Numbered from the stretch's first letter, positions 5,392 to 54,823 are shown. The stretch: DNA of 64,000 bases from an uncultured Candidatus Babeliaceae bacterium (GCA_963704655.1 OY969927.1:1184001-1248000), one strand, 5' to 3'. The notes: generated by a model not told the origin, from the letters alone. Numbers and translations: made by a program.

Positions 5392-6456
5392 TCAAAAGCT
5401 TGATTTTAATTGATCTTTATACGTTCTATTATTCTTCTCAAGAACTTCCAGAAGTGCAGTGGTCTGTAGATTGCGGAAGCGGTCAATGATGTTTACTTGG
5501 TCCTGAAGCTCTTTTTCGATATCTTCGTCATGTTTGAACCCTGTGGTATTAAAAATACTTGCTTTGCTGGCATCTATTTGTCTTTGGTAACTTATTACCT
5601 TTCGCTCCAAATCAGGGGGCAAAATATGAAGGGTTGTTTGCGCAATAAGGAGCGTTAACATATTTCTTAAAAAGAAATCTTGGAACGTTAATTTACCTTG
5701 CGCGGCGCGTTCGTTTTGTTGGATCTGTAACAATTTCTTTATTAGACCTAATTTAATGAAAATATTATTTATTTCAGCTTCATTCCAAGGATTGGGTGCT
5801 TTTATAGGGCTTTTTTCGTCGAATGTTTGTAATATTCTATCATCAAAAAAAAAATCATCTGCGGACACTAGGTTAAATTTTCGATAATTACAGATCGTTT
5901 TTTTAGAACCAAAATCTGGTTGTTCCTCTATAAGCCTATATTCAAAATACCCATAATCACGTAAATTATCGTCTTGTTTAATCGTCCCAGGCAGATATAG
6001 ATATTTTTTGCCTTCTGGAAAATCGAGTACTAAAGCGTGTTTTTCAAGATGTGCGTCTATGGTTGCGGGAAACGTTCGGTAAGCTTCATCGGGCGAAAAG
6101 GTGCTTGCTCTGGAAACGGGGCTGGTGACATAAAGTTTGCGCTTTTCGTCATATTCAAATTCGGGCAAATTGTTTTCTATATCTAGTATCTCAAGTGCTT
6201 GCCATCTTTCAGTGCTCCGCCTGGAATCATCCTGTTTTAAAGATAATGGGCCACTATTGGTTCTTGGTGAATCACTTATGAAAAGAGGCTTTGGACGAAT
6301 CATGATGCCATCTGGTCCAGTGCCTTCTGATACTGCCCTTCGTAGCCTTTGAATTTTGTCCATTCCATGCGCACATGGGCTCATGGTGAGTGCTATAAAG
6401 AAAAGAATTTTGATTTTTTTATTTCTTATTACACAATTATAAAAAATTTTTTTCAT
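5392..6456 (-). CDS. Hypothetical exported protein
   Basis: 354-aa ORF, leader ending AHG|MDK, SD ggaggg. Confidence 0.8.
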   Translation of the reverse strand: MKKIFYNCVIRNKKIKILFFIALTMSPCAHGMDKIQRLRRAVSEGTGPDGIMIRPKPLFISDSPRTNSGPLSLKQDDSRRSTERWQALEILDIENNLPEFEYDEKRKLYVTSPVSRASTFSPDEAYRTFPATIDAHLEKHALVLDFPEGKKYLYLPGTIKQDDNLRDYGYFEYRLIEEQPDFGSKKTICNYRKFNLVSADDFFFDDRILQTFDEKSPIKAPNPWNEAEINNIFIKLGLIKKLLQIQQNERAAQGKLTFQDFFLRNMLTLLIAQTTLHILPPDLERKVISYQRQIDASKASIFNTTGFKHDEDIEKELQDQVNIIDRFRNLQTTALLEVLEKNNRTYKDQLKSSF

Positions 6457-6649
6457 ACTAAAACCCTCCTATATATTAAAAATATTAAGGCTTAGGGTGA
6501 GCAATAGTCAATAATATGATTATTAAGGGGTGAGGCACCTTAATAATTTCAGCTTGAAAATCTATTTATTTCTGGTATACTTATATTTAACTTAGTAGCG
6601 TAATGCTCTATAAATATAAACAATAACGTTAATAATTAAAGGAATTACA

Positions 6650-6958
6650 ATGAAAAAAATGTTATTATTGAGCGCTCTTTTTGCTGCTTCAGCAGTTATG
6701 GCTATGGATCAAGAAAATAAAACTGCAGCGTTAAAAAACGATGTAAAAACTCTTGAAGCTATGAAATTGGGTGTTCAGCAAGCTCTTGTAAATGTGACAT
6801 TATCACCAAACGTAACTGTTCGCAGAGGTAAGCAATCTATTATCAAGCCTGCTGCATCTGTCGTTGACAATGTTGGCATATTAGAAAGAAAAGAAGCTGC
6901 TTTAACCTTGCAAATTGCAGCTGCTAAAGCAAGATTAGAAGAATCTCAAGCTAAGTAA
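6650..6958 (+). CDS. Small exported coiled-coil protein
   Basis: SD aaagga, leader ending VMA|MDQ, downstream terminator. Confidence 0.85.
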   Translation: MKKMLLLSALFAASAVMAMDQENKTAALKNDVKTLEAMKLGVQQALVNVTLSPNVTVRRGKQSIIKPAASVVDNVGILERKEAALTLQIAAAKARLEESQAK

Positions 6959-7004
6959 TGTTACTTTAATAATTAAATTCTTAACATCTTAGATTTACAT
7001 AATT

Positions 7005-7044
7005 AAGCCCCTGTTACTGTTTTCAGTAGCGGGGGCTTTTTTTT
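7005..7044 (+). terminator. Intrinsic terminator overlapping the lgt 3' end
   Basis: aagcccctgttactg-tttt-cagtagcgggggctt followed by a T-run. Confidence 0.8.
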
Positions 7045-7832
7045 GCGATTAATTCAGAGAAAAGAATAAGAAGTATACCCGCGCACAGTATCCCAATGCT
7101 TATCCACTGGTGAAAAGAAAGTTCGGATGAATACACAAGTGCATCGGTGCTATTAATAATGCGGTCGCCACGATAAAAATCGACCACAAAGCGTTCAAGA
7201 CTAGAAAATATTAAAAATAAACCAGCCAATGTGCCCGGCTGTAATCTAAAGCGTGCGCAGAGCTGTAATATAATAAAAATTCCCAAAAAGATAAGTGAGC
7301 TATAAAGCTGCGTAGGAATCAGTGGCATGTTTAATGGCGCATGCGAACCTGCGTGCGTATACATAATCGACCATGCCGATGTAGTGGCGCATCCAAAGCA
7401 ACAGCCAGCAAACAAGCAGCCTAAGCGAGCAATTGCTTGTGCCAATGGGATATAAAGTGCCCCTAAATCTAAAATGGGTAATACGGGTATTTTGTGGTAC
7501 CACAAAAATAGTGGAACAAAGATAAGCCCTGCAATAATTGCGCCCAATATAGAAAGTCCGCCGTTCCAGACAGAAACCATTTCAGTTAGAGTGTGGTATG
7601 ATTTCCATTCACTTGCAATATGCAATACCCGAGCGCCGATTATGGCAACAATTACTGTATAAATAATAAGCTTTTCGTAAAGAGCCGAACTTATATACTT
7701 TTTACGCAAGAGGTGATTATAACTTAATGCAATAAAAGCGGTGATTCCCAGCGCAACAAAAACGCCATAAATATGTATTGAAAGTTGGCCGAATAAGTGA
7801 AAAATCTCTGGATTTAAACTAAATGTTAGCAT
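7023..7832 (-). CDS. lgt: Prolipoprotein diacylglyceryl transferase
   Basis: IYG, GARVLH, WNGGLSILG, ARLGC, PTQLY and RFVVDFYRGD motifs. Confidence 0.95.
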   Translation of the reverse strand: MLTFSLNPEIFHLFGQLSIHIYGVFVALGITAFIALSYNHLLRKKYISSALYEKLIIYTVIVAIIGARVLHIASEWKSYHTLTEMVSVWNGGLSILGAIIAGLIFVPLFLWYHKIPVLPILDLGALYIPLAQAIARLGCLFAGCCFGCATTSAWSIMYTHAGSHAPLNMPLIPTQLYSSLIFLGIFIILQLCARFRLQPGTLAGLFLIFSSLERFVVDFYRGDRIINSTDALVYSSELSFHQWISIGILCAGILLILFSELIAKKSPRY

Positions 7833-7853
7833 AAATTACATTTCTAAATTTGG

Positions 7854-7950
7854 CCGCATGGATTCGACTACGCTCACCACGAGCGGCCTTTAACCCGTGC
7901 ACCCTGAGTGCCCGAAGTAGCGTTAACGCGAAGACGGGTGTATCGAAGGG
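7854..7950. repeat. Composite (inverted doublet) palindromic repeat overlapping the mnmG stop codon
   Basis: ccgcatggattcgactacgctcaccacgagcgg + ccgtgcaccctgagtg-hairpin-tgtatcgaaggg; supplies the C-terminal PSIHPSSR and the stop. Confidence 0.9.
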
Positions 7951-14228: not shown

Positions 14229-15260
14229 TTAAACTTGTCTTTTCATAATATTTTCAACTGAACAGGCAATAACATCGGCGCTTTGTTGCGTATAGCCGCC
14301 AGAAAGAACCATCATCACGGGGATTTTATTATCAATTGCAGATTTAATAACCATTTCATCGCGTTGTATAACGCCAGCTTTAGTTACACTCATGCAACCA
14401 AGTTGATCACCCTCAAGGATATCTGTGCCGGCATTATAGATGATAAGATCTGGCTTATGGGTCTCTATCGCGGCTTTAAGCGGTTGTTTTATGAGCTCAA
14501 GGTACTGTGTATCGTCAGTATACCATTCAAGTTCAATTGGATATTGTACATGTTGAGTTGCTGCACCATCGTGGACGCGCGGGTAGTTATATTTACCGAA
14601 AGCATCGACTATACATATTCTTTTATCATCACCAAAAATGGTAGATACGCCATTACCCTGGTGAGCATCTAAATCAACTATTAATACTTTTAAATCTGGG
14701 TTTTCTTGCCAAAGCTTATTGACCGCTAACGGGATATCGGCAAAAAAGCAAAAACCTTCACTGATGTTTGCTTTAGCATGGTGATAGCCGCCTGAAAGGT
14801 TAATGGCAACGCCATGTTTCATAGCAAGTTTTGCAGCGAGTATTGTGCCGCCTGTAGCATGTCGCATTGGCTTTAGTAGCTTAGTTTGCAACAGAAAATT
14901 AGGCATATATGCCAATAATGGTACGCCAACTGTATGTGCTATAACTTTTGAATTTTTTAAACTATTTAAATAATCTTGCGTATGAATGCATAACAAGTCT
15001 TGATCGGTTGCTGGTTTTGCCTCATGACACGTGCTATCCTGCAAAAGTGCTTTGTTTTTAAGATGATTAAATACTTTGCTGTATTTATGCGAATCAAAAT
15101 GGTGTAAGTATTTTTCTATGCCAAAGAATGAAATATCATATTTATCGCTATAGACAATATGCGTTTGTTTAAAATCAGGCGAATATTGGGCATGCGAGAA
15201 TGCAATGCTTGCAATTTGAATTATCGTTATAAACAATGAGTATAGTAAATTATATTTCAT
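14229..15260 (-). CDS. Zn-dependent deacylase, HDAC11/class IV-like, with signal peptide
   Basis: GGYHHA, GFC, DLDAHQGNG, YNAGTD and SGGY intact; IVYSDKYDISFFGIEKYLHHFD resembles the HDAC11 N-terminus. Confidence 0.92.
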   Translation of the reverse strand: MKYNLLYSLFITIIQIASIAFSHAQYSPDFKQTHIVYSDKYDISFFGIEKYLHHFDSHKYSKVFNHLKNKALLQDSTCHEAKPATDQDLLCIHTQDYLNSLKNSKVIAHTVGVPLLAYMPNFLLQTKLLKPMRHATGGTILAAKLAMKHGVAINLSGGYHHAKANISEGFCFFADIPLAVNKLWQENPDLKVLIVDLDAHQGNGVSTIFGDDKRICIVDAFGKYNYPRVHDGAATQHVQYPIELEWYTDDTQYLELIKQPLKAAIETHKPDLIIYNAGTDILEGDQLGCMSVTKAGVIQRDEMVIKSAIDNKIPVMMVLSGGYTQQSADVIACSVENIMKRQV

Positions 15261-24466: not shown

Positions 24467-24601
24467 TTTTCCTTTAAATTGTGATTGCAATATCTCTAAT
24501 AGTAATTATTGCAGATTTTTTGGTTAAAAGGCAAGATATTGGCTTATGTAAGCCCTATTTTCAGGTTAAAAACAGGGGTGTTTTTGGGTAAAAAAGCAGG
24601 T

Positions 24602-31643: not shown

Positions 31644-31651
31644 AATTTATT

Positions 31652-35755: not shown

Positions 35756-35859
35756 AATAAAAAAATTGTTAAAAAATAACGTATTGCTTTTATTATTGTT
35801 TATTAAAAACAACAAAATCGCAATACGTTATTTTAAAAATTAAAGATGAGTCTTTTTTT

Positions 35860-36620: not shown

Positions 36621-37262
36621 TTATTGTAGTGGGCAGCCAAGTTCATAAAATTGATTTTGTGAGAAGGGTATAAGTGCTGGGCCATTAATTCTCTTTTCTA
36701 ATGACTCACGCTTTTGTTTGAGCAAATCGCTTTCCTGTAACGGGTTATGCAATCTTTTTACTAAATATGAAGCGAGACTATCAACACTATGGGTTTCTTG
36801 TATACCTATGGCAATACCATCGGCAATTTCCAATGCGTGCCCATGTAACTGAATTAAATGACTGGCTTGTGAAATATACAATGCTTTTTTATCGAAAGGC
36901 CAATTTGAATTTGTGGCTTGTTGAGCTATTTGATCTAAACGAGCATCAGAAAAGAATGTTTTAAAGTCTGTGTCAGCTTTGTCAAAAGACGTAGCAACGT
37001 TTTCTATATTACCATGTATCTGGTGATCTAAAATTTTTTTAAGTGTTTTTTCGCATATATCCCTCGATTCCAGCTCCTGAGGGTTTTCTGTTAAAAAAGG
37101 CACTATAGCAGTTTCAGGGTTTTTTAATGGTAGTGTCGATAGCCCAAGTAATACATGTAATCTTGTTGTTTCATCAAGAGAAGCAAATTTTGTAAGACTA
37201 TTTTCATTGGCATGTGCAGATGCGCAGAGTAACGTGAGTAAAAGATAGAATTTTTTTATCAT
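36621..37262 (-). CDS. Exported protein, tandem family member 3 (ends CPLQ)
   Basis: MIKKFYLLLTLLCASAHA leader; DFKTFFSDARL and ASHLIQLH. Confidence 0.82.
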   Translation of the reverse strand: MIKKFYLLLTLLCASAHANENSLTKFASLDETTRLHVLLGLSTLPLKNPETAIVPFLTENPQELESRDICEKTLKKILDHQIHGNIENVATSFDKADTDFKTFFSDARLDQIAQQATNSNWPFDKKALYISQASHLIQLHGHALEIADGIAIGIQETHSVDSLASYLVKRLHNPLQESDLLKQKRESLEKRINGPALIPFSQNQFYELGCPLQ

Positions 37263-38986: not shown

Positions 38987-40702
38987 ATGAAAGAAAAAAT
39001 AATGAAGTTAATTAAACTAGTGGCCGTTGCTGTAATAATGGCATTCACCCTTCAAAATAGTGCACATGGCCCAGAAAGCCATTTACATAACGTTTTTTAT
39101 ACCCCTGCATTGCGCGAGCAATTTAGCCTGTTTATTGACAATGTTTTAAAACAGGTCCCTTCGACAGATTTTTTTGCGCATATAGATAAGATGCCGGGTA
39201 TTGGTTTTGTGCCTACTGATAGCGATGTTTATGAGCAATTATTGCCTGAAATTAACGCCTTAACGCCACGATTTTCACTTTATTATAAAATGGCATCATT
39301 GCAGAACCAGAAAAGTGTTCTTTCTGGGCAAATTCAAGAGCTTTTAGCTGATAAAAAAAGTATAGATGGCTGTGTTGAAATAGGTGGTCCTGGTACTTAT
39401 ACCAGCTGCATCAAAAAATTTATAACCGTTACTGGCGATATTTATGCAATAAATGATAAGCAAGAGGCAAGTGACCGTATTAAAGCATTTAGCTTTAACA
39501 TCAAAAACGGGTTTTTGCCGTATAATCATTTTGTGCCATTACAAGATTACGCGTCTATCGCCGAAGAAGTTATTCCAAGTAATAGTGTAGACTTGGTCAT
39601 CTGTGCTATTGGGTTGCACCATATTCCTGTAGAAAAATTATCTGATTTTGTTGCATCGATTCATAGAATCTTGCGCCCAGGTGGCACATTTATTGTGCGT
39701 GACCATGATGTTATTAATGATGATATTATGGACTTAACCCATGCTGCGCATAGCGTATATAATCTGCTTATGGTTAATGAGCCGTTAGAAAACGAGCGAG
39801 CAGAATTTAGAAACTTTAAAGCATTATCTTACTGGATTGAACTTTTACAACAACACGGTTTTGAAGTTGGCTCTGAGCGCCTTTTACAAAAGGGTGATCC
39901 AACACATAACACGATGTTAAAATTTACAAAAATTGCACAAACTGAGCCTGAAAAAGTTTTGCAAATTTCACATGATATAAGCAAAGAGCCTGGGTACCAA
40001 GCCAAGTTTATTGATACTTTTTTAAAGACCACCGAATGGTTTAATGTTGATATGACGCAAGAGTATGCAAAATTTATCGATTATAGGCCCTTTTATGAGT
40101 TTCCGTGGTTTGAAAGCGTTGGTCTTTATTGGGATCTATTTGCAAAATCGTGGAAAGTTGCTGCTAAAAAAACAAGCCATTGGGCTGTTTTGAGTTCAAC
40201 AGAGACAGGGATGAATCTTTTTATCGGTGTAACTATGACATTAGAATATGTCGCTAAAGGTATAATATCATGGCCTATTCGTATGGCTATTGCAGGTGTT
40301 GCTCCAGATAAAATTACCCTGTTTATTAATGATCGTGACAATAATGTTGAGTCATTTGATAGTCGCATCAAAATCGCTCAGCAGTATGCCAATAGCAGCC
40401 TTAAAGTTATTGATACTCCACGTTATAAAGAGTTTTTAGATATCTTGGTGGAGCTTAAAAAGTCGAATATAACTATTCTAGAAATTGCCGGTAATAAAGA
40501 GATTCAGATAAAAGTTCGCAAGAAAAATAGTATCCCTATGAATCTTACTATCCAAGGCACTGCAATCTTATACGATTGGCAGATCCCTACGCAGCAAGAT
40601 TATACCTATTATGCTTTATCTGTGCAGGTAGATAAACTTCTTGATGTCATGAGAGATTTTTCTGCTCACGGTATTGAAGTTTTATACGTTCATGATTTTT
40701 AA
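38987..40702 (+). CDS. Class I SAM-dependent methyltransferase-domain protein with leader and uncharacterised C-terminal half
   Basis: VEIGGPG, SNSVDLVICAIGLHH, LRPGGTFIVRDHD. Confidence 0.85.
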   Translation: MKEKIMKLIKLVAVAVIMAFTLQNSAHGPESHLHNVFYTPALREQFSLFIDNVLKQVPSTDFFAHIDKMPGIGFVPTDSDVYEQLLPEINALTPRFSLYYKMASLQNQKSVLSGQIQELLADKKSIDGCVEIGGPGTYTSCIKKFITVTGDIYAINDKQEASDRIKAFSFNIKNGFLPYNHFVPLQDYASIAEEVIPSNSVDLVICAIGLHHIPVEKLSDFVASIHRILRPGGTFIVRDHDVINDDIMDLTHAAHSVYNLLMVNEPLENERAEFRNFKALSYWIELLQQHGFEVGSERLLQKGDPTHNTMLKFTKIAQTEPEKVLQISHDISKEPGYQAKFIDTFLKTTEWFNVDMTQEYAKFIDYRPFYEFPWFESVGLYWDLFAKSWKVAAKKTSHWAVLSSTETGMNLFIGVTMTLEYVAKGIISWPIRMAIAGVAPDKITLFINDRDNNVESFDSRIKIAQQYANSSLKVIDTPRYKEFLDILVELKKSNITILEIAGNKEIQIKVRKKNSIPMNLTIQGTAILYDWQIPTQQDYTYYALSVQVDKLLDVMRDFSAHGIEVLYVHDF

Positions 40703-41049
40703 TAGTGAAGATACTGAGCATTTTTTGTGTCTTTAAGCGCTTGTAGCGCTTCAGGAGCATCCGCAAAAATTGCTGCCATGAGTTTCGTTTCTTTCGATAT
40801 TATTTCCGTAGCTTTTAAATTATTAACAAGCTGGAAAAAATATCGTAACTCTTTCTGGGTAGTTTTGAGTACCTCAGAAGGTTTTAATGTTTTTCCCCCG
40901 AGTGCTGAAACGATATTTGAGTTGTTTACAAAAAGTTCAAAACCATTATTTGTTAAACGGTCCCTGAGCATGTTTTCAGAAGGAATGGTAACTTCCATTG
41001 CTTGAGCTACACAAGGCAAAAGCAAGCTACATAAAAATATCTTTTTCAT
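40699..41049 (-). CDS. Hypothetical exported protein
   Basis: Leader ending AQA|MEV. Confidence 0.8.
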   Translation of the reverse strand: MKKIFLCSLLLPCVAQAMEVTIPSENMLRDRLTNNGFELFVNNSNIVSALGGKTLKPSEVLKTTQKELRYFFQLVNNLKATEIISKETKLMAAIFADAPEALQALKDTKNAQYLHY

Positions 41050-41081: not shown

Positions 41082-41576
41082 TCAAAATTCATTATCATCT
41101 TCAAAAGATTTTATAATCTCGTTAAGGGCGCGTTGCTTAGGTGAACCTTCCCAGATTCTTCTTTGGAGTTCATTCACGCATTGTTCAGCATAGACAGCTT
41201 CCTTATAAGTTAATTTTTCGCGTGCTATAAGTATATATTTGGAGGAGTCTAGGATACTTTCTGCTTTATTAAAGATAGCGAGTATAGGCAATTCTCTTTC
41301 TAATAAGTGTATTATCACATTATCTTGTATAGGTGAGCAATGTACTGCGATATCGATTGCGGTTAATTCTGTTACTTCATAGCCCTTAAATAGTGATGAT
41401 AAAAGCAATATTCCTGAAAGTGTTTTTCGAGGGAAATATGTTTCTAATTCTGCTACACGATCTTCTAGATTTGGGAATTGTCCTAAAAGGTTTAAAGCCT
41501 CTTCAACATTACTTTTTTCCATAGCATTGCAGCTTAGAATGACAGATATTCCTATAAGAAGTATCTTTTTTACCAT
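41082..41576 (-). CDS. Hypothetical exported protein
   Basis: Leader ending CNA|MEK. Confidence 0.8.
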   Translation of the reverse strand: MVKKILLIGISVILSCNAMEKSNVEEALNLLGQFPNLEDRVAELETYFPRKTLSGILLLSSLFKGYEVTELTAIDIAVHCSPIQDNVIIHLLERELPILAIFNKAESILDSSKYILIAREKLTYKEAVYAEQCVNELQRRIWEGSPKQRALNEIIKSFEDDNEF

Positions 41577-41711: not shown

Positions 41712-42425
41712 ATGCAATTTCATATAAAAAACATTTTTATTATTTTAGCTTTTTATGCTTTTTCCACTATTCCTGTTTGCGCAATGAATGCAAATATGCA
41801 AAAAACGCTTGACGCTGTTGAAGCTAACATTGAATTGGCTGAGCGCATCAAGGATGAGACAGAACAAGAATTTAAGACTCAAAAGGAATCTTTTGATGCA
41901 TTGGGTAAAGATTTCTCTACCAGCCAAGAGTATCAGCAACTTCGCGTTAAAATTGATACCTATAGAGCAGCTAGAGAAGTACTTACTTGGGAACAAATAT
42001 CTTCTGGAAGGTTCTGTCCAGTTGACTCAGAAAGATTTTCTAAGTATTGCTTAACCCGGGGTTTGCACTATCAAGGAGATATGTCTTATCAGGGAGATAC
42101 GTTTTCAGACAAAGAGGAGGAAGTTGAATTGCAAAAGATTGAAAATAATATTGAAAAAACGATTAGAAATCATAAAAATCCTCGAATGGCTGCCTTGATT
42201 GCACGTATGCAACATGATAAAAAACAAAATAAGAAACAAAAACTGGATAAAATAGCTGAAGCGAATTTTCATCAGGCATATTTATTAGAACAGCTTATCT
42301 TTGGGTTAGTAACTAAACCATTATCTGAAGAACAGTTTAAAGAACTAGCTTCTAATGGTTTTGATAAGAAAAAATTGTCTGCTATGATTCGCTCGTATAG
42401 AATTTATAAGAGTAATGATGTGTGA
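41712..42425 (+). CDS. Hypothetical exported coiled-coil protein
   Basis: Leader ending VCA|MNA. Confidence 0.8.
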   Translation: MQFHIKNIFIILAFYAFSTIPVCAMNANMQKTLDAVEANIELAERIKDETEQEFKTQKESFDALGKDFSTSQEYQQLRVKIDTYRAAREVLTWEQISSGRFCPVDSERFSKYCLTRGLHYQGDMSYQGDTFSDKEEEVELQKIENNIEKTIRNHKNPRMAALIARMQHDKKQNKKQKLDKIAEANFHQAYLLEQLIFGLVTKPLSEEQFKELASNGFDKKKLSAMIRSYRIYKSNDV

Positions 42426-43221: not shown

Positions 43222-44145
43222 ATGATGAAGATACAAATCTATACATTAATACTTGTATCTATGTTGTCTATTTCGGCAATGGAGCTACAAAAGACAAAGT
43301 CTGAAGGCGATGCTTTTAATGGGGCGCTTGACTCAGGTGATTTAGAAACGATGCTCACGCAGGCTGAGCAACTTTTTGATAGTGACTATCTTCAGGCATG
43401 GGCATTGGCTGAAGCCGCAACTGCCTTTGCAAGAGAAGGCGAAGCAGCATACTTTCTAGCGCGTCGATTTATTCCCGAAATAAGTAATTCAATAAAACGG
43501 CAAGAAGTATTGGATGGCAAACAGACCGGGGAATATCTCTTAAACCGAGCATGCTCGCAAAATAATCCCGCAGCAAAAGAATTTTTTAAAGAGCTTAATG
43601 GTCAGGAATTTCAGCATTCTACAACTCATGATAAAAGTAGAGCAGAATTTGAAGAGTATATACGATCGAGAAAACAATTAAGAGCTGAGGATTTTTTACG
43701 TAATGCACAAGGGTGTAGTGAGCCTGGCCATTCTGGCGATTTTAGACATCATTTACGTGGATTAACGTTGGCAATGATCGGTTTTTTTCAATACCCAGAT
43801 GACCACAATCTGCCATTCTGGATCGCACAATTTGCCAGCAATCGACAAGCCAATAAATCATATAAAGATTCTGGGGACTTTCAACATCTATTTTCTCCAA
43901 ATATACCGCTTGCTGAAAAATATTTAGCTTTTGCAAGCAAAGGGGAAGCTTCTACTCAAGCACGCATATTGCTGTTACAAGCACATTTAAACCGGGACAA
44001 AAAAACTGATAATCCGCGCGAATTATATAGCGAAGCACTTGCTGCGCCAGACTTTCATACATTGCCTGATCATGTAAATCTTAAACGTTCTATCGAGCGT
44101 GAAATACATACGTGCGGGGCATCATGCGGTTGTGCTGTATTATGA
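43222..44145 (+). CDS. Exported helical-repeat (Sel1/TPR-like) protein with C-terminal CaaX motif
   Basis: Leader ending ISA|MEL; YLLNRACSQNNPAA and LAEKYLAFA; ends CGASCGCAVL. Confidence 0.82.
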   Translation: MMKIQIYTLILVSMLSISAMELQKTKSEGDAFNGALDSGDLETMLTQAEQLFDSDYLQAWALAEAATAFAREGEAAYFLARRFIPEISNSIKRQEVLDGKQTGEYLLNRACSQNNPAAKEFFKELNGQEFQHSTTHDKSRAEFEEYIRSRKQLRAEDFLRNAQGCSEPGHSGDFRHHLRGLTLAMIGFFQYPDDHNLPFWIAQFASNRQANKSYKDSGDFQHLFSPNIPLAEKYLAFASKGEASTQARILLLQAHLNRDKKTDNPRELYSEALAAPDFHTLPDHVNLKRSIEREIHTCGASCGCAVL

Positions 44146-45024
44146 TGCGCCCGTTGCCTTGCATAGATCACTTATATCACGATCAAGCATTTTAATGCTG
44201 TCTTTACAGCTATTCATGATAGCGCGCGAGGCATGTATCCCTTCTGGGCCTTCGGGATTGCCAAAGCTTGTAAGTACTTCCATGAATGTAGGATTTGGCA
44301 ATTTACTGTAGATCGTTAATTCGGTTTCAGTAAATGGGAAAGGAGCAAGTTCAATCATCGCTTCTTTATATTTTTCTAACTTTCTTTTACGTTTTGCCAA
44401 CTGTAAAACTAGTGCACTTGCTGGCACTTTTTCTGTAGCATGTGCAGTGCATAATGCAACAAATTTACTTAATTGATCTGGCATTGTATAGAGCCCTTTG
44501 CCAACATAGTATTGCGGATCAAAATTATTGTTTGGCTTTGTATGCTCAGGATTATTTGAAGAAAGAAATGTTTTATAATCTGTAAGGCCAAAATTCGTGC
44601 ACTTTTGGGCAAACTCTGGGGCTGTCACCTTAAGTTCAGAGCGTTTTCTAAGTTCTTGATGCGTATCAATGATGGTATTAAAAATTTGTGGGCGAAGTGC
44701 GATTAGTTTTTTCCAATTTGTAAGCGTTGGTGTAGGGTATCGATTTTTATAATATTCGTTTAATGCTGCAAGCCCTGCAACGGTTATTGCGCATGTTGCC
44801 GAAGATGCTGGCAGACTTATGATATATTGGGCTACCGCTGCAACAGGAAGTGTCAATATAAAAGCTGGCACTGTTGCGCCAAGCCCTTCTTGTACCGCTT
44901 GCGCATGTAATTCTTTGTCTGTTGGATCTGGCGGCAGTTCGTCCATTGCCATAAGTGGGAGTATGCAAAGTAGTGAAAGAAGATAGAAGTTAATGATATT
45001 TTCCCTGTTGTTTTTATTCGTCAT
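44140..45024 (-). CDS. Hypothetical exported protein with two hydrophobic segments
   Basis: Leader ending LMA|MDE; start uncertain. Confidence 0.75.
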   Translation of the reverse strand: MTNKNNRENIINFYLLSLLCILPLMAMDELPPDPTDKELHAQAVQEGLGATVPAFILTLPVAAVAQYIISLPASSATCAITVAGLAALNEYYKNRYPTPTLTNWKKLIALRPQIFNTIIDTHQELRKRSELKVTAPEFAQKCTNFGLTDYKTFLSSNNPEHTKPNNNFDPQYYVGKGLYTMPDQLSKFVALCTAHATEKVPASALVLQLAKRKRKLEKYKEAMIELAPFPFTETELTIYSKLPNPTFMEVLTSFGNPEGPEGIHASRAIMNSCKDSIKMLDRDISDLCKATGAS

Positions 45025-49041: not shown

Positions 49042-50421
49042 TTATTTGAGCCATAATCTTTCATAAATAGCTGATGTATTAAGACTGCCATTTGGGTAAA
49101 GGGCAACAACGCTGTATCCGCTACATTTATTTTTCGGTGCCTTGAATGTCCATGTATTTGTTCCTTGAGGTGAAGTAGTGGTGCTGCCGATTAAGATACC
49201 ATTTTGATAAATAAAGATTTTTGATGGATTTTGTGCAGTTCCGCAGAGTTTTTTATAGTGAGATTTTTTCGTAACATTACAAATGCGTGTTGATGTTAAT
49301 CGTGGGCTATTTAAATAGCGTGCAACTTGAACAAGATTAAATGATTGATCTGCGCCTACTGCAATAATTTTTCCATTGCATTGCAATGCGCCATCAAATA
49401 TTGTTGCACCAGGTGGTGTTTCAACAACCCCATTTGTCCCAAATGTTGTGTCCAGTTGTCCGCTTGATGTATAGCGCACCAATTGAAAATCTAATATGGA
49501 GTAAGAAGGCGCCCCAAGCAGAATGCATTTGCCGTCTGCCTGTAAAAGCAGAGCATTTGCAATGCCAGAGGGCCCTGAAATGACACCGCCGCCAAAGGTG
49601 GTATCAAGTGATCCATCGCTATTCAAACGTACTAGTTCTAATGTTGGGGTAAAGGTGCTGCCCGCTATAATTATTTTTCCATCTGGTTGTAAAACAATTG
49701 GGCCCCATATGCCTCCGGGAGCAACAGCTACCGCAAAGCTGTCATCAAGTGTGCCGTCTGTATTGTATCGTATAACCGTTAAATTAAAGCTGCTGGAATT
49801 GCCCGCAACAATAACTTTGCCGTCATTTTGAATGGTAATACCTTCAATATATTGCCCAGGACCGCTTTCAAATATCGTGTCAACACTACCATTTGTGTTG
49901 TAGCGTACCACCACAAACAACCCGGTATTATCATTGGTTCCTGCAAGAATGATTTTGCCATCAGTTTGGAGTGCAAGAAAAGCGCCGATGCCAATAGGGC
50001 CTATTACCACACCATCAGAGCCGAATGTTGTATCATTTGTTCCATCTGGATTGTAGCGTATCAGCTGAAAGAATTGAAATGTTGCATCTGCGCCGGCTAT
50101 AATAATTTTTCCATCAGGTTGTATAATAACACTTGAAGCTAATATCCCTGTGGTATCAGTAACAACACCATTTGTGCCAAAAGTGGTATCAATTGTTCCA
50201 TCTTTATTGTAACGTATGGTTATCGTGGCACCCACTGTATTTGTTGCTAGTACGACAATTTTGCCATTAGTTTGAATGGCGCATGAAAAACCGACAAATC
50301 CATTTGTTGGAGAATCGACAAAGCCAGCACCAGCGCCAAATGAAGGGTCCAACGTGCCATCTTGTGCAGATAAACTTAAGCATATTCCATAGAAACTGAT
50401 AATGAGTAATATTTTTTTCAT
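49042..50421 (-). CDS. Exported delta-60 repeat beta-propeller protein with C-terminal Ig-like domain
   Basis: About 7 repeats of QxDGKIxxAG...RYNxDGTLDxTFG. Confidence 0.9.
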   Translation of the reverse strand: MKKILLIISFYGICLSLSAQDGTLDPSFGAGAGFVDSPTNGFVGFSCAIQTNGKIVVLATNTVGATITIRYNKDGTIDTTFGTNGVVTDTTGILASSVIIQPDGKIIIAGADATFQFFQLIRYNPDGTNDTTFGSDGVVIGPIGIGAFLALQTDGKIILAGTNDNTGLFVVVRYNTNGSVDTIFESGPGQYIEGITIQNDGKVIVAGNSSSFNLTVIRYNTDGTLDDSFAVAVAPGGIWGPIVLQPDGKIIIAGSTFTPTLELVRLNSDGSLDTTFGGGVISGPSGIANALLLQADGKCILLGAPSYSILDFQLVRYTSSGQLDTTFGTNGVVETPPGATIFDGALQCNGKIIAVGADQSFNLVQVARYLNSPRLTSTRICNVTKKSHYKKLCGTAQNPSKIFIYQNGILIGSTTTSPQGTNTWTFKAPKNKCSGYSVVALYPNGSLNTSAIYERLWLK

Positions 50422-50432
50422 ACGTTCCCCTT

Positions 50433-50901: not shown

Positions 50902-52086
50902 TTATTTTCTGACAATATTAAATCTTTTAACCAGGTGCCATTTTAAAATCGGGTCAAATTTGCTAAGGGTTCCATGGAAATCCCAAGTTTTAAACTGTGG
51001 GTTATATTTTTTGAAAAGATCAAAATCAATAGGCATAGGATTTTTATGTTTTTTATAATATGTCCTACCTTCTTTTTCTCGCCGTGCGTGATACCGTTCT
51101 TGTAGGGCATATTCAGCGCCAAATAAAAAATAGATCAGTGATCTTTGGTATTCTTTTAGATTTTCAAAACTCTTTTTTAAATAGTCTGGATTAACGGTAA
51201 TTTTTAGCTGACCAGATGCTCCGACGAAATTGTCCGGAACAATAAGATCATGGGCTTGTGAAACAATTTGTCTTACCAGCCGGTTTTGTGGTGACACATT
51301 AGTGAAGCCATCTACACGTTCTGAATTAATGTCATAAATTCTGCCAGCACAAGAATAGTTGATGCTAACTAATCGATTTCCGTCATGAGAAAATTTTAGG
51401 TACTTAAGGGGGATGTTGATTCCATATGTACGAAAAATAGTATCGGTAGCTAAATCTCTAACTTGAATTTGCCGGTGTAACTCTATTGCAAGCCATTTAT
51501 TGGCATGTGAGATGGCAATTTTAGAGACATCTGAAGGGCAATTTGCTACTAAACGCTCTTTTTTTGTTTCAAGGTTATACCCTCTTATTGACGCAAAGTT
51601 ATCGGCTGCGACTTTATATCTATGAACGTATAACAGCTCTTTTCCTGTTGCATCAAATACAAAGTCGTTTGAGCTAGAGACATTAATTCTTGTAGGTCGT
51701 TTGTTTGGCTGCAGAAGATCATAAAGTTTTATTTTGACATTTGGTTTTGCTAGTGCTAACAGCTGTTTGCTCGGGTTATAAGCATAGATGGTATCATATT
51801 CTCTATACTTATTTTTAAAAAAAGAACAATATGGCTTATAAGTTTCTAGCTCTGGGACCATCCATGATTCATTATAATCTAAAAACTCTCTCTTTTCATT
51901 ATAATGGTAAATTGTTTTTAGCACTTTCCATCGTAATTCAGCAGGTATTTTATACAAATCATAGCTCATATTTTTAGTAAAACCATGTGCAGTAGTATCG
52001 GCATGTTTACTTAGAATTTTAACTTGTTCCTGCGCAAAAAGATCAATGTGGCAAAGGAGTAAAAAAATGGTTATTTTAATATTCAT
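50902..52086 (-). CDS. Exported WD40-like protein with F-box-like motif (tandem paralog A)
   Basis: LYKIPAELRWKVLK; IAISHANKWLA, LKFSHDGNRL; last 45 aa identical to paralog B. Confidence 0.85.
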   Translation of the reverse strand: MNIKITIFLLLCHIDLFAQEQVKILSKHADTTAHGFTKNMSYDLYKIPAELRWKVLKTIYHYNEKREFLDYNESWMVPELETYKPYCSFFKNKYREYDTIYAYNPSKQLLALAKPNVKIKLYDLLQPNKRPTRINVSSSNDFVFDATGKELLYVHRYKVAADNFASIRGYNLETKKERLVANCPSDVSKIAISHANKWLAIELHRQIQVRDLATDTIFRTYGINIPLKYLKFSHDGNRLVSINYSCAGRIYDINSERVDGFTNVSPQNRLVRQIVSQAHDLIVPDNFVGASGQLKITVNPDYLKKSFENLKEYQRSLIYFLFGAEYALQERYHARREKEGRTYYKKHKNPMPIDFDLFKKYNPQFKTWDFHGTLSKFDPILKWHLVKRFNIVRK

Positions 52087-52107
52087 GGTAAGGGCTTAAC
52101 GTTCAAT

Positions 52108-53256
52108 CTATTTTCTGACAATATTAAATCTTTTAACCAGGTGCCATTTTAAAATTGGGTCAAATTTGCTAAGGGTTCCATGAAAATCCCATGTTTTAAA
52201 CTGTGGGTTATATTTTTTGAAAAGATCAAAATCAATAGGCATAGGTGTTTGATATTTTCCCGTATATGATTCACCCTCTTTTTCTTGTCGCTCTTTATGT
52301 CGTTCTTGTAATGATCGCTCAGCGCCAAATAGAAAAGCGATCAGTGATTTTTGGTATTCTTTTAGATTTTCAAAACTCTTTTTTAAATAGTCTGGGTTAA
52401 TAGTAATATCTATTTTTCCCGTTCTGCCTTTTAAACTCTCTGGCACCATAAGATCATGCGCTGGTGAAAAATGCTCTTTTAATTTAGGGTGCTCTGGGGT
52501 GATATCTGCAAAGCTGGCTGAAGTAAATCCTGTTTCTACATTATATAATCTGCACACTTTTTGAGTGTCAATTTTAACTAAACGGTCTCCGCTAGCATTA
52601 AATTTTAGATACGTAATGGGTCGATTAATTTCAAAGGACCTAAAAATATCTTTGGTATCTAAATTAATAACATCAATTCGGTTTTCAAGCGCGACTGCAA
52701 GCTGTTTATTGTCATTTGAAATGGCAATTTTATGGATATTTTCAATTTGAGCTGTTAATACCCGTTCTTTTTTTGTTTCAAGGTTATAGCTTCTTACTAT
52801 TGAAAAAAGCCCCATATCTTTATAGCAAAACAGCAATTCTTCTCCTGATGCATCAAATATAAAATCATTTGGGATAGTCATTTTTAATTTTTTAGGACGT
52901 TTGTTTGTTTGCAAAAGATCTATCAGATATATTGCATTTTTTGGGTTGGCTACTGCTAATAACTGTTTGACATGGTTATAAGCATACAGGATATTATTAT
53001 CTTCATTTTTAATTGTTAGGTATGGTTTATTTGTTAGTTGCCCTGGCGTAGATGATTCATGAGCACTTATTATTTTAAGCACCTCACATTGTAATTCACC
53101 AGGCATGTTAAAGAAGTTAGAATGCACATCGTCGCCATTAAAACCATGTATTGTTATTTGAGTATCATCTTTGGTAGCAACTTTTTGCATTTCAATATCC
53201 TGTGCATAAAGACAGGCGTGAGAAAATAGTATAATAATTGCTGTTTTTTTGTTCAT
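52108..53256 (-). CDS. Exported WD40-like protein with F-box-like motif (tandem paralog B)
   Basis: FFNMPGELQCEVLK; IAISNDNKQLA, LKFNASGDRL. Confidence 0.85.
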   Translation of the reverse strand: MNKKTAIIILFSHACLYAQDIEMQKVATKDDTQITIHGFNGDDVHSNFFNMPGELQCEVLKIISAHESSTPGQLTNKPYLTIKNEDNNILYAYNHVKQLLAVANPKNAIYLIDLLQTNKRPKKLKMTIPNDFIFDASGEELLFCYKDMGLFSIVRSYNLETKKERVLTAQIENIHKIAISNDNKQLAVALENRIDVINLDTKDIFRSFEINRPITYLKFNASGDRLVKIDTQKVCRLYNVETGFTSASFADITPEHPKLKEHFSPAHDLMVPESLKGRTGKIDITINPDYLKKSFENLKEYQKSLIAFLFGAERSLQERHKERQEKEGESYTGKYQTPMPIDFDLFKKYNPQFKTWDFHGTLSKFDPILKWHLVKRFNIVRK

Positions 53257-53416
53257 TGATATATCCAAATTTGATCTTATAATTTAGTTTATTATTCTTT
53301 TTGCATTATATATTATATTATAATAGCAAATTTCCCTGTTTTTGACAAATGTATAGCAAAGACAGGTATGATCTGACTTATCCATGGATCGCAATGTGGA
53401 ATGTGACAGGATAGTT

Positions 53417-54067
53417 TTAATCTACCAATTCAAAGATATCAATGGCCCGTGTACTGGGATTTTGCTTTAATATTAAATTAAAGGTTTCGTAAATAATAGG
53501 GTCCTGGGTTGTTACAAATTGTCCCGAACCAATAGGATGATGTTGTTGAGTTTGAATAATGGCTGCTGTATCAGATGGTTGTATCGTTACCATTAATTCT
53601 GTACGAGCGTGAAATTCCAAGTTTACTGATGCAATTTCATTTGGTTTAACGGGTAATGTTCTATGGTGTTCCCACTTATTGTCATGCATAAGATGAATTT
53701 GTGCTAGTACAGAAAACGGGGAATTATTGGTGAACGTATTTAGCTTAAAATTTTTTTGTAAGAGTGCATGACACTGTTGTTCTGCTGCTAAGCGATTCGA
53801 TGCGTAAAGATTTTGAAACCGCGCGAGACGCGCTTGAGATTGTAATTGTGCGTTAATTAATCTTTGGGACAATTCATCACGGTGTTTAATTAATGACTCG
53901 TTAGCTGTTTCAAGTCGAGCAATTTCTCTTGCGATATAATCGTGTTGCAGGGCGCCTTCTATTACTAACCATGCGATTTTTCGATCTGAATAAAAATGGG
54001 GCTGTAATGTTTCATCAGCAGCCATAAGGCAAGAACCATAAGAAAGAATAAGAAATAATATTAACAT
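53417..54067 (-). CDS. Hypothetical exported protein (coiled coil + beta-rich domain)
   Basis: Leader ending LMA|ADE. Confidence 0.75.
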   Translation of the reverse strand: MLILFLILSYGSCLMAADETLQPHFYSDRKIAWLVIEGALQHDYIAREIARLETANESLIKHRDELSQRLINAQLQSQARLARFQNLYASNRLAAEQQCHALLQKNFKLNTFTNNSPFSVLAQIHLMHDNKWEHHRTLPVKPNEIASVNLEFHARTELMVTIQPSDTAAIIQTQQHHPIGSGQFVTTQDPIIYETFNLILKQNPSTRAIDIFELVD

Positions 54068-54119
54068 AGCAAAAGCTCAGGCAGTGTATCTTTAACCTTT
54101 TGAAAAATCTGATATTTTA

Positions 54120-54392
54120 TTAATCTTTCCAATTCCACCATTTTAAAAGTTCAGGGTCATGGTGCTGTGTCGATGCAAAATAAATTGCGCAGCGAAAGAC
54201 ATAGAGCATGCATCTATCAACTTGCTGGCCCTTGAGTATGCACAGCGTTTTATACAGTTTTTCAGCGTCTGCATCTTTAAGATCATCTAGTGACCGCAAC
54301 CCCATGTCCCAAAAATCTTGCGCAATAATGTTACCCACACCAGGAATTTCACGAAATACGGCTAATGTCTTTTTTTGATTATTATTAATCAT
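54120..54392 (-). CDS. Cdd1 / pathogenicity-locus family helix-hairpin-helix protein
   Basis: IPGVG HhH motif; DRCMLYVFRCAIYFA...KWWNWKD. Confidence 0.85.
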   Translation of the reverse strand: MINNNQKKTLAVFREIPGVGNIIAQDFWDMGLRSLDDLKDADAEKLYKTLCILKGQQVDRCMLYVFRCAIYFASTQHHDPELLKWWNWKD

Positions 54393-54415
54393 TTTGGGTA
54401 GAATGTTGTGCAGTT

Positions 54416-54823
54416 TTATTTAACGTATTTTTCGATTAATTCATGTGCTGTAAATATTTTTTTAACTTCATTTAAGGCATGGTTTTCATCGCCTTGCATA
54501 AGTTTTTCTATACTTTCTTTTGATTTATATTGTTGCAAAGTTTGAGCAGCTTGGAAAACGGTAAAAGTTTTTGGTAATTTATCTTTAACCGCTTCAGCAT
54601 TTTTAAAATTTTCTGGGCTTGGAAAGTTTCCGCAATTTATCAGTAAGGCTGCTATCCCAGCTTTTCCAAGATCTAATTCTTCCAAGGATTTATGAGCATC
54701 TGTTGGTATTAATGTTACCGCATTGAATGATTTTTCAGAGAGATCTTTGCCTGGAAATTCAGTGTTCATGCTTTTTAAGTGCATAGTATTAAGAATGAGA
54801 CAAAGTAATAATATTTTTTTCAT
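54416..54823 (-). CDS. Hypothetical exported protein
   Basis: SD aagga; leader ending LKS|MNT. Confidence 0.8.
   Translation of the reverse strand: MKKILLLCLILNTMHLKSMNTEFPGKDLSEKSFNAVTLIPTDAHKSLEELDLGKAGIAALLINCGNFPSPENFKNAEAVKDKLPKTFTVFQAAQTLQQYKSKESIEKLMQGDENHALNEVKKIFTAHELIEKYVK

Follow-up and report, generated by a model that had tools for sequence, protein, structure and literature searches.

A bias towards methionine with an acidic or amide partner at the predicted mature N-termini of exported Dependentiae proteins

Methionine is generally rare at position +1 of signal peptidase I substrates. The N-termini of eukaryotic proteins are subject to the specificity of methionine aminopeptidase, to NatB (Met-Asp/Glu/Asn/Gln) and to the Arg/N-degron rules, NatB being mainly a co-translational enzyme. 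In Bacteroidetes, the Q-rule describes signal peptidase I substrates whose +1 residue is Gln, which becomes pyroglutamate (PMC5837995, PMC10653852). The edema factor of anthrax has been reported to be Sec-exported and to act in the host cytosol with a mature Met-Asn start, its activity following the N-end rule (PMC3755998). For Dependentiae, signal peptides have been reported in 44% of CDS, with secretion into the host proposed (PMC6561590), and in a cultivated relative no secretion system other than type II is reported to have been found (PMC4378268). Here, we describe a bias at the predicted +1 position in the genome of an amoeba-parasite-type bacterium of the Dependentiae (TM6, Babeliaceae), starting from a stretch of 64,000 nucleotides (the window).

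Predicted cleavage sites throughout derive from a crude, purpose-made leader and -3/-1 heuristic. Leaders had to contain a basic n-region, an uncharged hydrophobic core of 7-15 residues and a polar c-region after it; cleavage called for a small, uncharged residue at both -3 and -1, with Pro excluded from -3 to +1. The sample comprised 477 leader-bearing ORFs, 39 from the window and 438 from 72 related Dependentiae loci. The identical pipeline was applied to 450 kb of E. coli K-12 as a control, yielding 58 leader ORFs. Chance was modelled by a binomial with 3% expected Met at +1.

An initial annotation had listed 11 unrelated window ORFs in which a hydrophobic leader and a small residue precede Met. 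All 11 are present with the sequences given there, and their unrelatedness was borne out by all-against-all BLASTP of the 71 window ORFs, in which none matched another. They share one layout, a K/R-rich start, a hydrophobic core, a small -1 residue and then ATG, and D/E/N follows Met in nine, as had been claimed. No Pfam match was found for any of the 11 at E<=0.001. The annotation designated each ORF by its low end, so that in the 8 minus-strand genes the site lies near the high end. Its further claim, predicted cleavage directly before Met, stands for 10 of the 11, where this is the top-scoring or sole -3/-1 site, and is doubtful for the ORF at 23939. About 43 of the 71 window ORFs carry a leader, and Met is at +1 in 10-11 of these (binomial p=5e-7 for 10/43). 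The strict pipeline, which misses the ORFs at 5392 and 44140 for their long n-regions and places the 23939 site elsewhere, still returned 8/39 (p=2e-5).

Three of the sites lie on the plus strand (slashes mark the predicted cut). ORF 6650-6958 (VMA/MDQ; leader and Met 6650-6706) has an 18-aa leader, its Met(+1) codon at 6704-6706 following the top site, and an SD-like 5-mer upstream. ORF 41712-42425 (VCA/MNA; 41712-41786) has a 24-aa leader and Met at 41784-41786; its homologue search returned the self-match only. ORF 43222-44145 (ISA/MEL; 43222-43281; 19 aa, Met at 43279-43281) encodes a protein with a CaaX-type box at the C-terminal end. Three distant leader-bearing homologues (26-29% identity) have T, S and T in place of Met.

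On the minus strand, ORF 5392-6456 (AHG/MDK; 6361-6456) has a 31-aa leader at 6364-6456 and Met at 6361-6363 behind the only -3/-1 site. An AGGAG-like site precedes its first ATG, and the homologue P0002 (42% identity) retains Met (TQT/MER). ORF 34223-35107 (LNG/MRA; 35045-35107; 20 aa, Met at 35045-35047) and ORF 44140-45024 (LMA/MDE; 44944-45024; 26 aa, Met at 44944-44946) likewise have a single compatible site each, and the C-terminal part of the former resembles two leader-bearing J-domain proteins of L001, both with Met(+1). ORF 54416-54823 (LKS/MNT; 54767-54823; 18 aa, Met at 54767-54769) has two relatives in L001 (60% and 37% identity) that keep Met, as LES/MFN and LRS/MDE. ORFs 40699-41049 (AQA/MEV; 40996-41049; 17 aa, Met at 40996-40998) and 41082-41576 (CNA/MEK; 41520-41576; 18 aa, Met at 41520-41522) follow the same pattern. 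In the family of ORF 35183-35815 (LDA/MNA; 35699-35755; 18-aa leader from MIKK, Met at 35699-35701), Met is not kept: the paralogue at 36621-37262 (37% identity) reads AHA/NEN, and the +1 residues of relatives in L001 and L002 are H and Q. The doubtful case, ORF 23939-24490 (TQT/MID; 24395-24466), has a 23-aa leader from MMKK and Met at 24395-24397; Thr is poor at -1, and better sites (LSS/QKT, GLS/SQK) lie 5-6 residues upstream of Met.

The predicted leaders are real, translated Sec-type leaders, judging from their translation signals and conservation. An SD-like 4-mer or longer lies upstream in 43/66 leader ATGs and in only 4/66 Met(+1) codons, and homologues conserve the leaders. Two of the 68 Met(+1) calls, a Lon protease and a DUF421 membrane protein, are false leaders. 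Median leader length is 20 aa in the Met and non-Met sets alike, and -1 usage is A>G>S in both (A 41, G 14, S 8 and C 3 in the Met set). The best signal-peptidase-I-type site falls directly before Met, which makes Met the predicted mature start. Other leader types were considered for the 11 window ORFs. A lipoprotein signal for signal peptidase II needs a lipobox Cys at +1, where all 11 have Met, and Met is not known to take a lipoprotein-type lipid modification; lgt itself is present in the window at 7023-7832. Type IV prepilin leaders, which are short and basic, are cut after Gly and have the hydrophobic stretch with Glu at +5 behind the cut, do not fit, as here the hydrophobic stretch lies before the predicted cut and the mature start is polar, and a Tat signal was rejected on the lack of RR in all 11 n-regions. 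At the DNA level, the codon choice for Ala(-1) equals that of other leaders (p=0.75), and the Met-polar junction is, by this measure, set at the amino-acid rather than the DNA level.

The occurrence of exported proteins predicted to start with Met is real. Met occupies the predicted +1 position in 68/477 leader-bearing ORFs, whereas it accounts for 0-22/477 (0-4.6%) at each other position from -12 to +16. The frequency is 14.2% when weighted over 360 sequence clusters, singletons contribute 45/304, and Met(+1) occurs in 38 of 69 sources. Outside the window it is found in 60/438 leader ORFs of the 72 related loci, and in 1/13 of an outgroup of 7 loci. That Met is unusual at +1 elsewhere, as initially stated, agrees with the E. 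coli control (1/58; Fisher p=0.005); here it is 5-7x enriched. We also used a test that dispenses with called sites, scoring each Met within 14 positions past the hydrophobic core for a preceding -3/-1-compatible pair. Such a pair precedes 106/204 post-core Met versus 1216/7070 (17%) residues overall (p=1e-30), the other 19 residues ranging from 9 to 20% and E. coli Met giving 2/19. This result supports the heuristic cleavage sites. An artefact, whether by chance, from miscalled starts or through bias in the cleavage heuristic, could be suspected from the untrained heuristic, the 2/68 false leaders and the one doubtful site among the original 11, but position control, site-free test, cluster weighting, E. 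coli control and SD evidence all oppose it, and we find it scarcely credible. The Met-polar junction is strongly enriched at predicted mature starts across Dependentiae (Babeliales), in many unrelated proteins. About one in seven predicted exported proteins of this bacterium and its relatives would begin with Met and then an acidic or amide residue, a lineage-wide bias. The bias seems to be unreported; a term search of the Q-rule paper PMC5837995 turned up neither methionine nor TM6 nor Dependentiae.

The usual partner of predicted Met(+1) is large and polar, namely Glu, Asn, Asp, Gln and less often Arg. D/E/N/Q stands at +2 in 44/66 (67%) after Met, compared with 23/90 (26%) after L/I/V/F/W and 32% after all non-Met residues, so the partner noted in the window is confirmed and is specific to Met. 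Counting D/E/N only, the values are 39/68 after Met and 93/409 after other +1 residues (p=2e-8), against 37/261 at residue 2 of ordinary genes. Small residues are avoided at +2 (3/68 versus 133/409 after other residues, p=1.5e-7, and 69/261 at ordinary starts), those permitting Met removal occur in 2/66, and L/I/F/W/Y/M in 8/68 versus 89/409 (p=0.07). Positions +3 to +6 are weakly biased, and no motif extends past +2.

The residue at +2 bears on whether these Met residues are, or once were, start codons. The initial annotation had offered leaders grafted onto pre-existing ATGs as one of three options: cytoplasmic or newborn genes would have gained a leader by 5' extension, leaving the old ATG at the junction. 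Most Met(+1) proteins are indeed fast-evolving and Pfam-less (52/68), being only 28-60% identical beside housekeeping genes of 76-94% identity; AT-rich upstream DNA should easily encode K/I/L/F-rich peptides; and one spurious upstream extension was found, in Lon of L049, most relatives of which start at the aligned Met. However, ordinary genes of these genomes have K/I/N/S/A/T as their second residue, from which the residue after Met(+1) differs both in the scarcity of small residues and in charge (D/E 27/68 versus 12/261; Lys 3/68 versus 78/261). The Met excess is confined to +1, whereas imprecise grafting would spread it over +2 to +16, no leaderless relative starting at Met occurs among 98 homologue pairs, no SD remnant precedes Met, and Met is conserved above neighbouring residues. 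Grafting is the least supported of the three options and appears improbable. Use of the inner ATG as a second functional start for a cytoplasmic copy (dual localisation) would account for an in-frame ATG right where the mature part begins and for purine-rich second codons, 80% of the +2 codons having A in the second position. It conflicts with the near lack of SD-like sites before the inner ATG in genomes that use them, with 12 upstream bases that resemble those of other leaders, and with the rarity of Lys, the favoured second codon, after inner Met; we consider it very improbable. SD sites at the leaders and not at the inner ATG, together with a +2 residue unlike that of true starts, argue against fossil and internal starts alike.

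Met(+1) is retained in 21/28 homologue pairs (17 queries, mean 41% identity), in which identity is approximately 0.47 at +2 to +11 and 0.82 at -1; the predicted Met and the -1 residue are conserved to a similar degree. Most Met(+1) proteins either lack a Pfam match or have eukaryote-type domains, those matched including ankyrin (6), J-domain (3) and WD40 (1) proteins. Neither class is significantly in excess over other leader proteins (Pfam-less 52/68 versus 100/150, p=0.16; eukaryote-type domains 10/60 versus 20/150, p=0.52). Classical envelope families account for 0/60 Met(+1) proteins and 13/150 others (p=0.02), a contrast that vanishes once three hydrolases are classed among the envelope enzymes (3/60, p=0.57).

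These data could reflect a sorting signal, read by the bacterium after Sec and routing, for instance, a subset of periplasmic intermediates over the outer membrane by type II, vesicles or another path. Acidic residues after the lipid-modified Cys direct Bacteroidetes lipoproteins to the surface, a comparable case. A sharp, position-specific two-residue motif at the amino-acid level, restricted like a sorting class to a subset (~14%) of leader proteins, conserved about as well as -1 and lacking classical envelope families, would suit such a signal, as would a cultivated relative in which type II is the only system found (PMC4378268). Still, the bias fades past +2, Met is absent from homologues in some families, the envelope contrast hinges on the classing of the three hydrolases, type II systems are generally taken to recognise folded substrates, and no candidate receptor emerged. 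We regard a sorting signal as unlikely.

We tentatively favour, as a plausible reading short of a probable one, that the Met-polar mature N-terminus is a selected cap comparable to the Q-rule, with a putative link to host rules. These bacteria live inside protists, and a large share of their Sec-exported proteome appears to be destined for the host. Exported-protein starts tend to be acidic or amide-rich, and in the eukaryotic cytosol an N-terminal Asp, Glu, Asn or Gln is destabilising when bare. A Met placed before such a residue would be spared by methionine aminopeptidase, would not form a recognised N-degron and would resemble the NatB class of host proteins, in effect paralleling the pyroglutamate cap. 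Host exposure of leader proteins is suggested by the ankyrin, J-domain and WD40 proteins with Met(+1) and by the family of ORF 43222-44145, 4/4 members of which end in C-a-a-X. The bias may thereby adapt exported proteins to life in a host cell. The same +2 statistics would arise from a Met-polar motif of any function, a sorting signal included, so that the host-rule link is a pattern coincidence only; the data fit a host-like N-terminus as well as a sorting signal and do not separate the two. Among non-Met leader proteins with eukaryote-type domains, +1 is of a stabilising type in 7/20 and host-destabilising in 13/20; with these and many other leader proteins predicted to have a destabilising +1, general N-degron avoidance is not seen. 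Further points run against the cap reading: Met stands at only 14% of predicted sites, it is not kept in the 35183 family (36621, L001, L002) or in the CaaX family, Met(+1) proteins show no significant excess of Pfam-less or eukaryote-type proteins, their lack of envelope families depends on the classing of three hydrolases, and NatB acts mainly co-translationally.

A cap could also act against exopeptidases outside the cytoplasm, in periplasm, vacuole or medium, independently of the host cytosol, and would then serve the purpose of the Q-rule pyroglutamate. Lineage-specific +1 biases are known, with Gln tied to extracytoplasmic stability (PMC5837995, PMC10653852), and Gln(+1) is fairly common here (35/477, D/E/N/Q next in 19/35). 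Unmodified Met is not known to block aminopeptidases, though, and the avoidance of small +2 residues is not explained, which makes this version quite unlikely. Overall, the rarity of Met at +1 and its D/E/N partner in the initial annotation have stood, and its grafting option has fared worst.

Compared with known systems, the leaders resemble classical Sec/signal peptidase I substrates in their positive n-region, hydrophobic core, small -3/-1 residues and length of ~20 aa. All 11 window ORFs have the n-region, core and c-region, and the -3/-1 pair is doubtful at 23939; the difference from the classical type is Met(+1), so rare in E. coli. The residues after Met(+1) match the Met-retaining NatB class of eukaryotic N-termini (Met followed by Asp/Glu/Asn/Gln in 9/11 window ORFs and, as above, two thirds overall), with Met-removal residues nearly absent and bulky hydrophobic ones reduced. 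Unlike here, where predicted post-export N-termini are concerned, those rules act on nascent cytosolic proteins. Edema factor similarly has its signal peptide cleaved before Met and Asn, and its N-terminal residue governs activity in cells (PMC3755998), but this concerns one protein, from an unrelated Gram-positive that has a delivery system of its own, and no proteome-wide rule. The CaaX box of the 43222-44145 family recalls host-prenylated Legionella effectors (PMC2916131), which unlike it are type IV-injected and have no Sec leader; prenylation of the family is putative. The Q-rule is likewise a phylum-specific +1 bias within the ordinary Sec pathway (PMC5837995, PMC10653852). Membership was rejected, as Gln would be expected in most substrates and is outnumbered here by Met; no glutaminyl cyclase gene was seen within the window. 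The bias described here differs in the residue (Met, not Gln), in its share (~14% of substrates rather than most) and in a +2 rule of large polar and no small residues, with no modifying enzyme known, and the fairly common Gln(+1) of these bacteria shares the acidic or amide +2 partner.

The Lon protease gene (31716-34133, minus strand) has its best relatives, 84-94% identical, in metagenome-assembled genomes of Candidatus Babeliaceae or Dependentiae, and about 70 further Dependentiae/TM6/Babeliales loci contain a Lon match at 60-71%. The window, with a GC content of about 37%, is therefore part of a small Dependentiae genome; the known members of the phylum are protist parasites. Housekeeping genes (dnaG, a sigma-70 fragment, mnmG, lgt, atpD/C, lon, and tyrS) are interspersed with many genes that lack a Pfam match or encode eukaryote-type domains, including WD40, ankyrin, TPR, histone deacetylase, PLA2_B lysophospholipase, and others. 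The ORF following dnaG (1386-2681, minus strand) matches only sigma-70 regions 1.1 and 1.2 in Pfam; the remainder of this 431-aa protein has no Pfam match at E≤0.001, where sigma regions 2-4 would be expected to match. Ku (59620-60417, minus strand) adjoins a stand-alone LigD 3'-phosphoesterase domain (60491-60910, plus strand). Both belong to non-homologous end joining, here in a genome of about 1.3 Mb, and Pfam revealed no ligase or polymerase domain near them in the window.

By our reading of a scan for the residues at -3 and -1 of the signal peptidase I site, about 43 of 71 ORFs in the window carry a Sec-type leader. Domains that normally work in the eukaryotic cytosol or nucleus are found among these leader-bearing proteins. 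Pfam and the leader scan together identified WD40 propellers (starting at 26901, 28332, 45344, 50902, and 52108), an ankyrin protein (13620), a histone deacetylase (14229), a PLA2_B lysophospholipase (60925), a NAGPA phosphodiester glycosidase (46717), and a pentapeptide repeat protein (10103).

The initial annotation had described at least 11 unrelated ORFs in which a leader is followed directly by Met, nine of them with Asp, Glu, or Asn next. On re-reading the sequence, we found leader and Met in all 11 (5392, 6650, 23939, 34223, 35183, 40699, 41082, 41712, 43222, 44140, and 54416, by low coordinate) and D/E/N next to Met in 9/11, and no two of the ORFs are similar to each other. They were scanned for a hydrophobic core followed by small residues at -3 and -1 without Pro. 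A cut directly before Met, so that Met becomes the first mature residue, Met(+1), is the top or sole candidate in 10 of the 11, but ORF 23939-24490 has better sites 5-6 residues upstream. None of the 11 has a Pfam match. Met occupies +1 in about one quarter of the approximately 43 leader-bearing ORFs of the window. A stricter automatic filter retained 40 leaders among 70 ORFs, 39 of them with a site and 8 of these with Met(+1); 5392 and 44140 escape this filter owing to the length of their n-regions.

To extend the sample, 79 loci (1.43 Mb) around Lon were collected from one scan of genome contigs, and 7 were set apart as outgroups by title or low identity (L065, L069, L074, L075, L076, L078, and L079). 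The sample thus consists of the 64-kb window and the surroundings of a single gene in 72 genomes, rather than whole proteomes. ORFs of at least 70 aa were picked greedily, and in-frame start codons were compared by their Shine-Dalgarno (SD) sequence and leader properties to select the start. As the cleavage site we took the highest-ranking -3/-1 pair close to where the hydrophobic stretch ends, with +1 ignored in the choice; all sites are predictions of our fixed heuristic rather than of a trained signal-peptide predictor. Iterative refinement of a cleavage-site matrix failed to converge, the matrix shifting into the hydrophobic core, and the fixed heuristic was kept.

Met is strongly enriched at the predicted +1 position. 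It was found in 60/438 leader proteins of the 72 related loci, in 5/23 of the five closest relatives, and in 1/13 of the outgroup loci. For the window and related loci together the count is 68/477 (14.3%), which makes Met the commonest predicted +1 residue, and its share at all other positions from -12 to +16 is 0-4.6%. The enrichment is spread across the lineage, with at least one Met(+1) case in 38 of 69 sources; it persists when each of 360 BLAST clusters is counted once (14.2%) and among singletons (45/304). The same pipeline applied to 450 kb of E. coli K-12 yielded 421 ORFs, 65 of them leader-like and 58 with a site, and a single Met(+1) (1/58; Fisher test against Dependentiae, p=0.005). 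A test independent of site choice gave the same picture. In the 14-residue stretch past the hydrophobic core (505 leader ORFs), a -3/-1-compatible pair immediately precedes 106 of 204 Met residues, compared with 9-20% for each other residue (overall 1216/7070; p=1e-30). In E. coli, 2/19 Met residues qualify. Pfam identified two of the 68 Met(+1) calls as false leaders, one a DUF421 membrane protein and the other a Lon whose upstream extension is spurious; their removal leaves 66/475 for later counts.

An ATG at this position could be a fossil start codon left at the leader junction, or a site of internal initiation. Both explanations are disfavoured. An SD-like match of at least 4 bases precedes 43/66 leader ATGs but only 4/66 Met(+1) codons, which argues against internal initiation, and no leaderless relative beginning at the aligned Met was found in 98 homologue pairs (0/98), which argues against a fossil start. 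The SD distribution of leaders in the Met set equals that of other leaders. In the 11 ORFs of the window, an AGGAG- or GGGG-like SD lies before each first ATG and not before the inner ATG. Because the leader ATGs have SD sequences that are rare before the inner ATG, and homologues keep the leaders at the protein level, the inner ATG does not look like a true start or a second start.

The residue after Met(+1) is also constrained. The 68 cases comprise E (17), N (12), D (10), R (7), Q (5), Y (4), H (3), K (3), G (2), L (2), and A, M, and F (1 each), with S, T, C, P, V, I, and W absent. D/E/N occupy +2 in 39/68 Met(+1) proteins, compared with 93/409 proteins with another +1 residue (p=2e-8) and 37/261 at residue 2 of ordinary genes (ATG start, SD of 4 or more). 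For the small residues G/A/S/T/C/P/V, the corresponding counts are 3/68, 133/409 (p=1.5e-7), and 69/261. A general rule of hydrophobic +1 plus acidic +2 was rejected, since D/E/N/Q follow L/I/V/F/W(+1) in just 23/90 cases; they follow A(+1) in 21/50 and Q(+1) in 19/35. The +2 partner is specific to Met. A DNA-level junction motif or recombination cassette was likewise discarded, as the synonymous codons for Ala(-1) are used as in other leaders (p=0.75). Apart from the codons, the junction shows no base bias, the third position of the +2 codon included. The signal is therefore set at the amino-acid level.

Because few homologues were found, conservation of Met could be judged in few families only. 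Searches with 54416-54823 and 41712-42425 returned only the query proteins, and those with 5392-6456 and 43222-44145 returned 1 and 3 homologues, respectively. Met is kept in 21 of 28 homologue pairs spanning the site (17 queries, mean identity 41%), although these pairs are few and not independent; identity averages approximately 0.47 at +2 to +11 and is 0.82 at -1. Met is kept between 5392 and its homologue P0002 (42% identity), between 54416 and two genes of the relative locus L001 (60% and 37%), in a four-member family in L031/L035, and in an S9 hydrolase pair in L015/L017. It is not kept between 35183 (M) and 36621 (N), L001 (H), and L002 (Q), nor in the 43222 family, where three homologues of 26-29% identity have T, S, and T. 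Across 21.7-37.3 kb of the window, aligned with its closest relatives (L001-L004 and L013, Lon 84-94% identical), housekeeping neighbours are 76-94% identical; leader proteins that lack a Pfam match reach only 28-60% or have no counterpart. Turnover of the exported accessory genes is very fast. Gene order is also rearranged among close relatives, the tyrS block adjoining lon in L001. A leaderless 114-aa ORF (35860-36204, minus strand) is similar to the C-terminal portion of the leader protein next to it, 35183-35815 (44% over 43 aa), and to a 251-aa leader protein in L001; it is probably what is left of a truncated paralogue.

We then compared the proteins that carry Met(+1) with 150 drawn at random from the 378 other leader proteins, assigning functional classes ourselves from Pfam names. 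Outside the window there are 60 Met(+1) proteins, of which 44 lack a Pfam match at E≤1e-5; the others comprise 6 ankyrin, 3 J-domain, 1 WD40, and 1 GH3 proteins, 2 S9-type hydrolases, the 2 false leaders, and a single weak coiled-coil hit. The random 150 include 100 without a match, 11 ankyrin and 3 RING proteins, and, by our classing, about 13 members of classical envelope or periplasmic families (OmpA, BamD, TamB, M23, solute-binding protein, and others) and about 17 of polytopic or cytoplasmic families in which the leader call is doubtful. The two sets differ neither in the share without a Pfam match (p=0.16) nor in that with eukaryote-type domains (p=0.52). Envelope families account for 0/60 Met(+1) proteins and 13/150 others (p=0.02), or for 3/60 when hydrolases are counted (p=0.57). 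Only 7 of 20 non-Met leader proteins with eukaryote-type domains have A/S/T/G/V at +1.

A tandem array of seven genes (L016:12547-20775, plus strand), three with ankyrin repeats, has a leader and then Met in 7/7, mostly Met-Glu-Lys-Lys/Asn, of which the strict pipeline flagged only 4/7; in several, basic clusters soon after Met resemble nuclear localisation signals. Three leader-bearing J-domain (DnaJ) proteins (L001:7461-9880, plus strand; L026:20825-21514, minus strand) all have Met(+1), two of them being paralogues with Met-Gly-Gln, and no J-domain protein is present in the random 150. ORF 43222-44145 (plus strand) and all three of its distant homologues (P0004-P0006) end in a CaaX-type box (C-A-V-L, C-V-I-L, C-I-V-Q, and C-V-I-Q), the eukaryotic prenylation signal. 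In the whole data set, such ends occur in 5/477 leader proteins and 0/812 others. These termini suggest that the family may act on host membranes from the cytosolic side, and the box could be usable by host enzymes only. The structure model of 43222-44145 is of moderate quality (pLDDT 65.7) and all-helical, with weak matches in the PDB to TPR/Sel1-type repeats only (best E=0.025; none at E≤0.001). The model of 5392-6456, built from a two-sequence alignment, was unusable (mean pLDDT 36.8).

Three N-terminal rules operate in eukaryotes: small +2 residues allow methionine aminopeptidase to cleave off Met, D/E/N/Q mark the NatB class, and bulky hydrophobic +2 partners turn unacetylated Met into a degron. 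After Met(+1), residues permitting Met removal are nearly absent and bulky hydrophobic partners are reduced. Release into the host has been proposed for leader-bearing ankyrin and other Dependentiae proteins (available text of PMC4378268 and PMC6561590), and for a Sec-exported toxin active in host cytosol, a mature Met-Asn N-terminus and adherence to the N-end rule have been described (available text of PMC3755998). Since the +2 pattern matches the eukaryotic rules, and in view of the host-release proposals, the CaaX family, and the toxin precedent, we favour, with low to moderate confidence, a role of Met(+1) as a cap that would hide the acidic/amide early mature region from host N-terminal surveillance. 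A bacterial sorting signal and protection from exopeptidases fit the same statistics. Our confidence is further limited by the many other leader proteins whose predicted +1 residue would be destabilising in the host.

Dependentiae, which are widespread protist parasites, send almost half of their proteome out through Sec and apparently possess only a type II system (available text of PMC6561590 and PMC4378268). We consider it possible, at somewhat less than an even chance, that a phylum-wide 'Met rule' operates, by which a defined subset of Sec-exported, host-directed proteins exposes Met-(Glu/Asn/Asp/Gln) as an active signal. If read by host N-terminal machinery, Met would be retained, acetylated in NatB fashion, and escape N-degron ligases; if read by the bacterium, it would mark an undescribed export step sending periplasmic proteins out to the host. 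Such a rule, if true, would add a new class of mark, for N-terminal host adaptation or for export, and would connect the cleavage of bacterial signal peptides with eukaryotic N-terminal surveillance in a testable way. It would give a concrete handle on how and in what form effectors reach the host. It would also offer a simple sequence handle for picking effectors from thousands of uncultivated parasite genomes, a cheap feature separating candidates from housekeeping envelope proteins in metagenome-assembled genomes.

We found no published Met(+1) bias in searches of the main text of openly accessible papers on signal peptides, secretion, or effectors of Dependentiae, TM6, Babela, or Babeliales, or on NatB and bacterial effectors. 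We rate the bias as a lineage-specific +1 rule for signal peptidase I substrates, of a kind already known from the Q-rule of Bacteroidetes, where Gln at +1 is converted to pyroglutamate. A term search of the available text of the Q-rule paper (PMC5837995) returned no mention of methionine, TM6, or Dependentiae. In the window, Gln ranks second among predicted +1 residues (6/39), often as Gln-Asp/Glu (LSA/QDG, LFA/QEQ, and LYA/QDI, the slash marking the predicted cut). Gln(+1) ORFs include 49042-50421, 50902-52086, 52108-53268, 14229-15260, and 28823-29065, all on the minus strand, and Gln(+1) accounts for 35/477 overall; it may serve as another cap, of the kind seen in the Q-rule. If the first two exported residues follow a lineage-wide rule, it would be the second known phylum-specific +1 rule, after that of Bacteroidetes, and the Met cap proposed here would be functionally parallel to its pyroglutamate cap (PMC5837995, available text).
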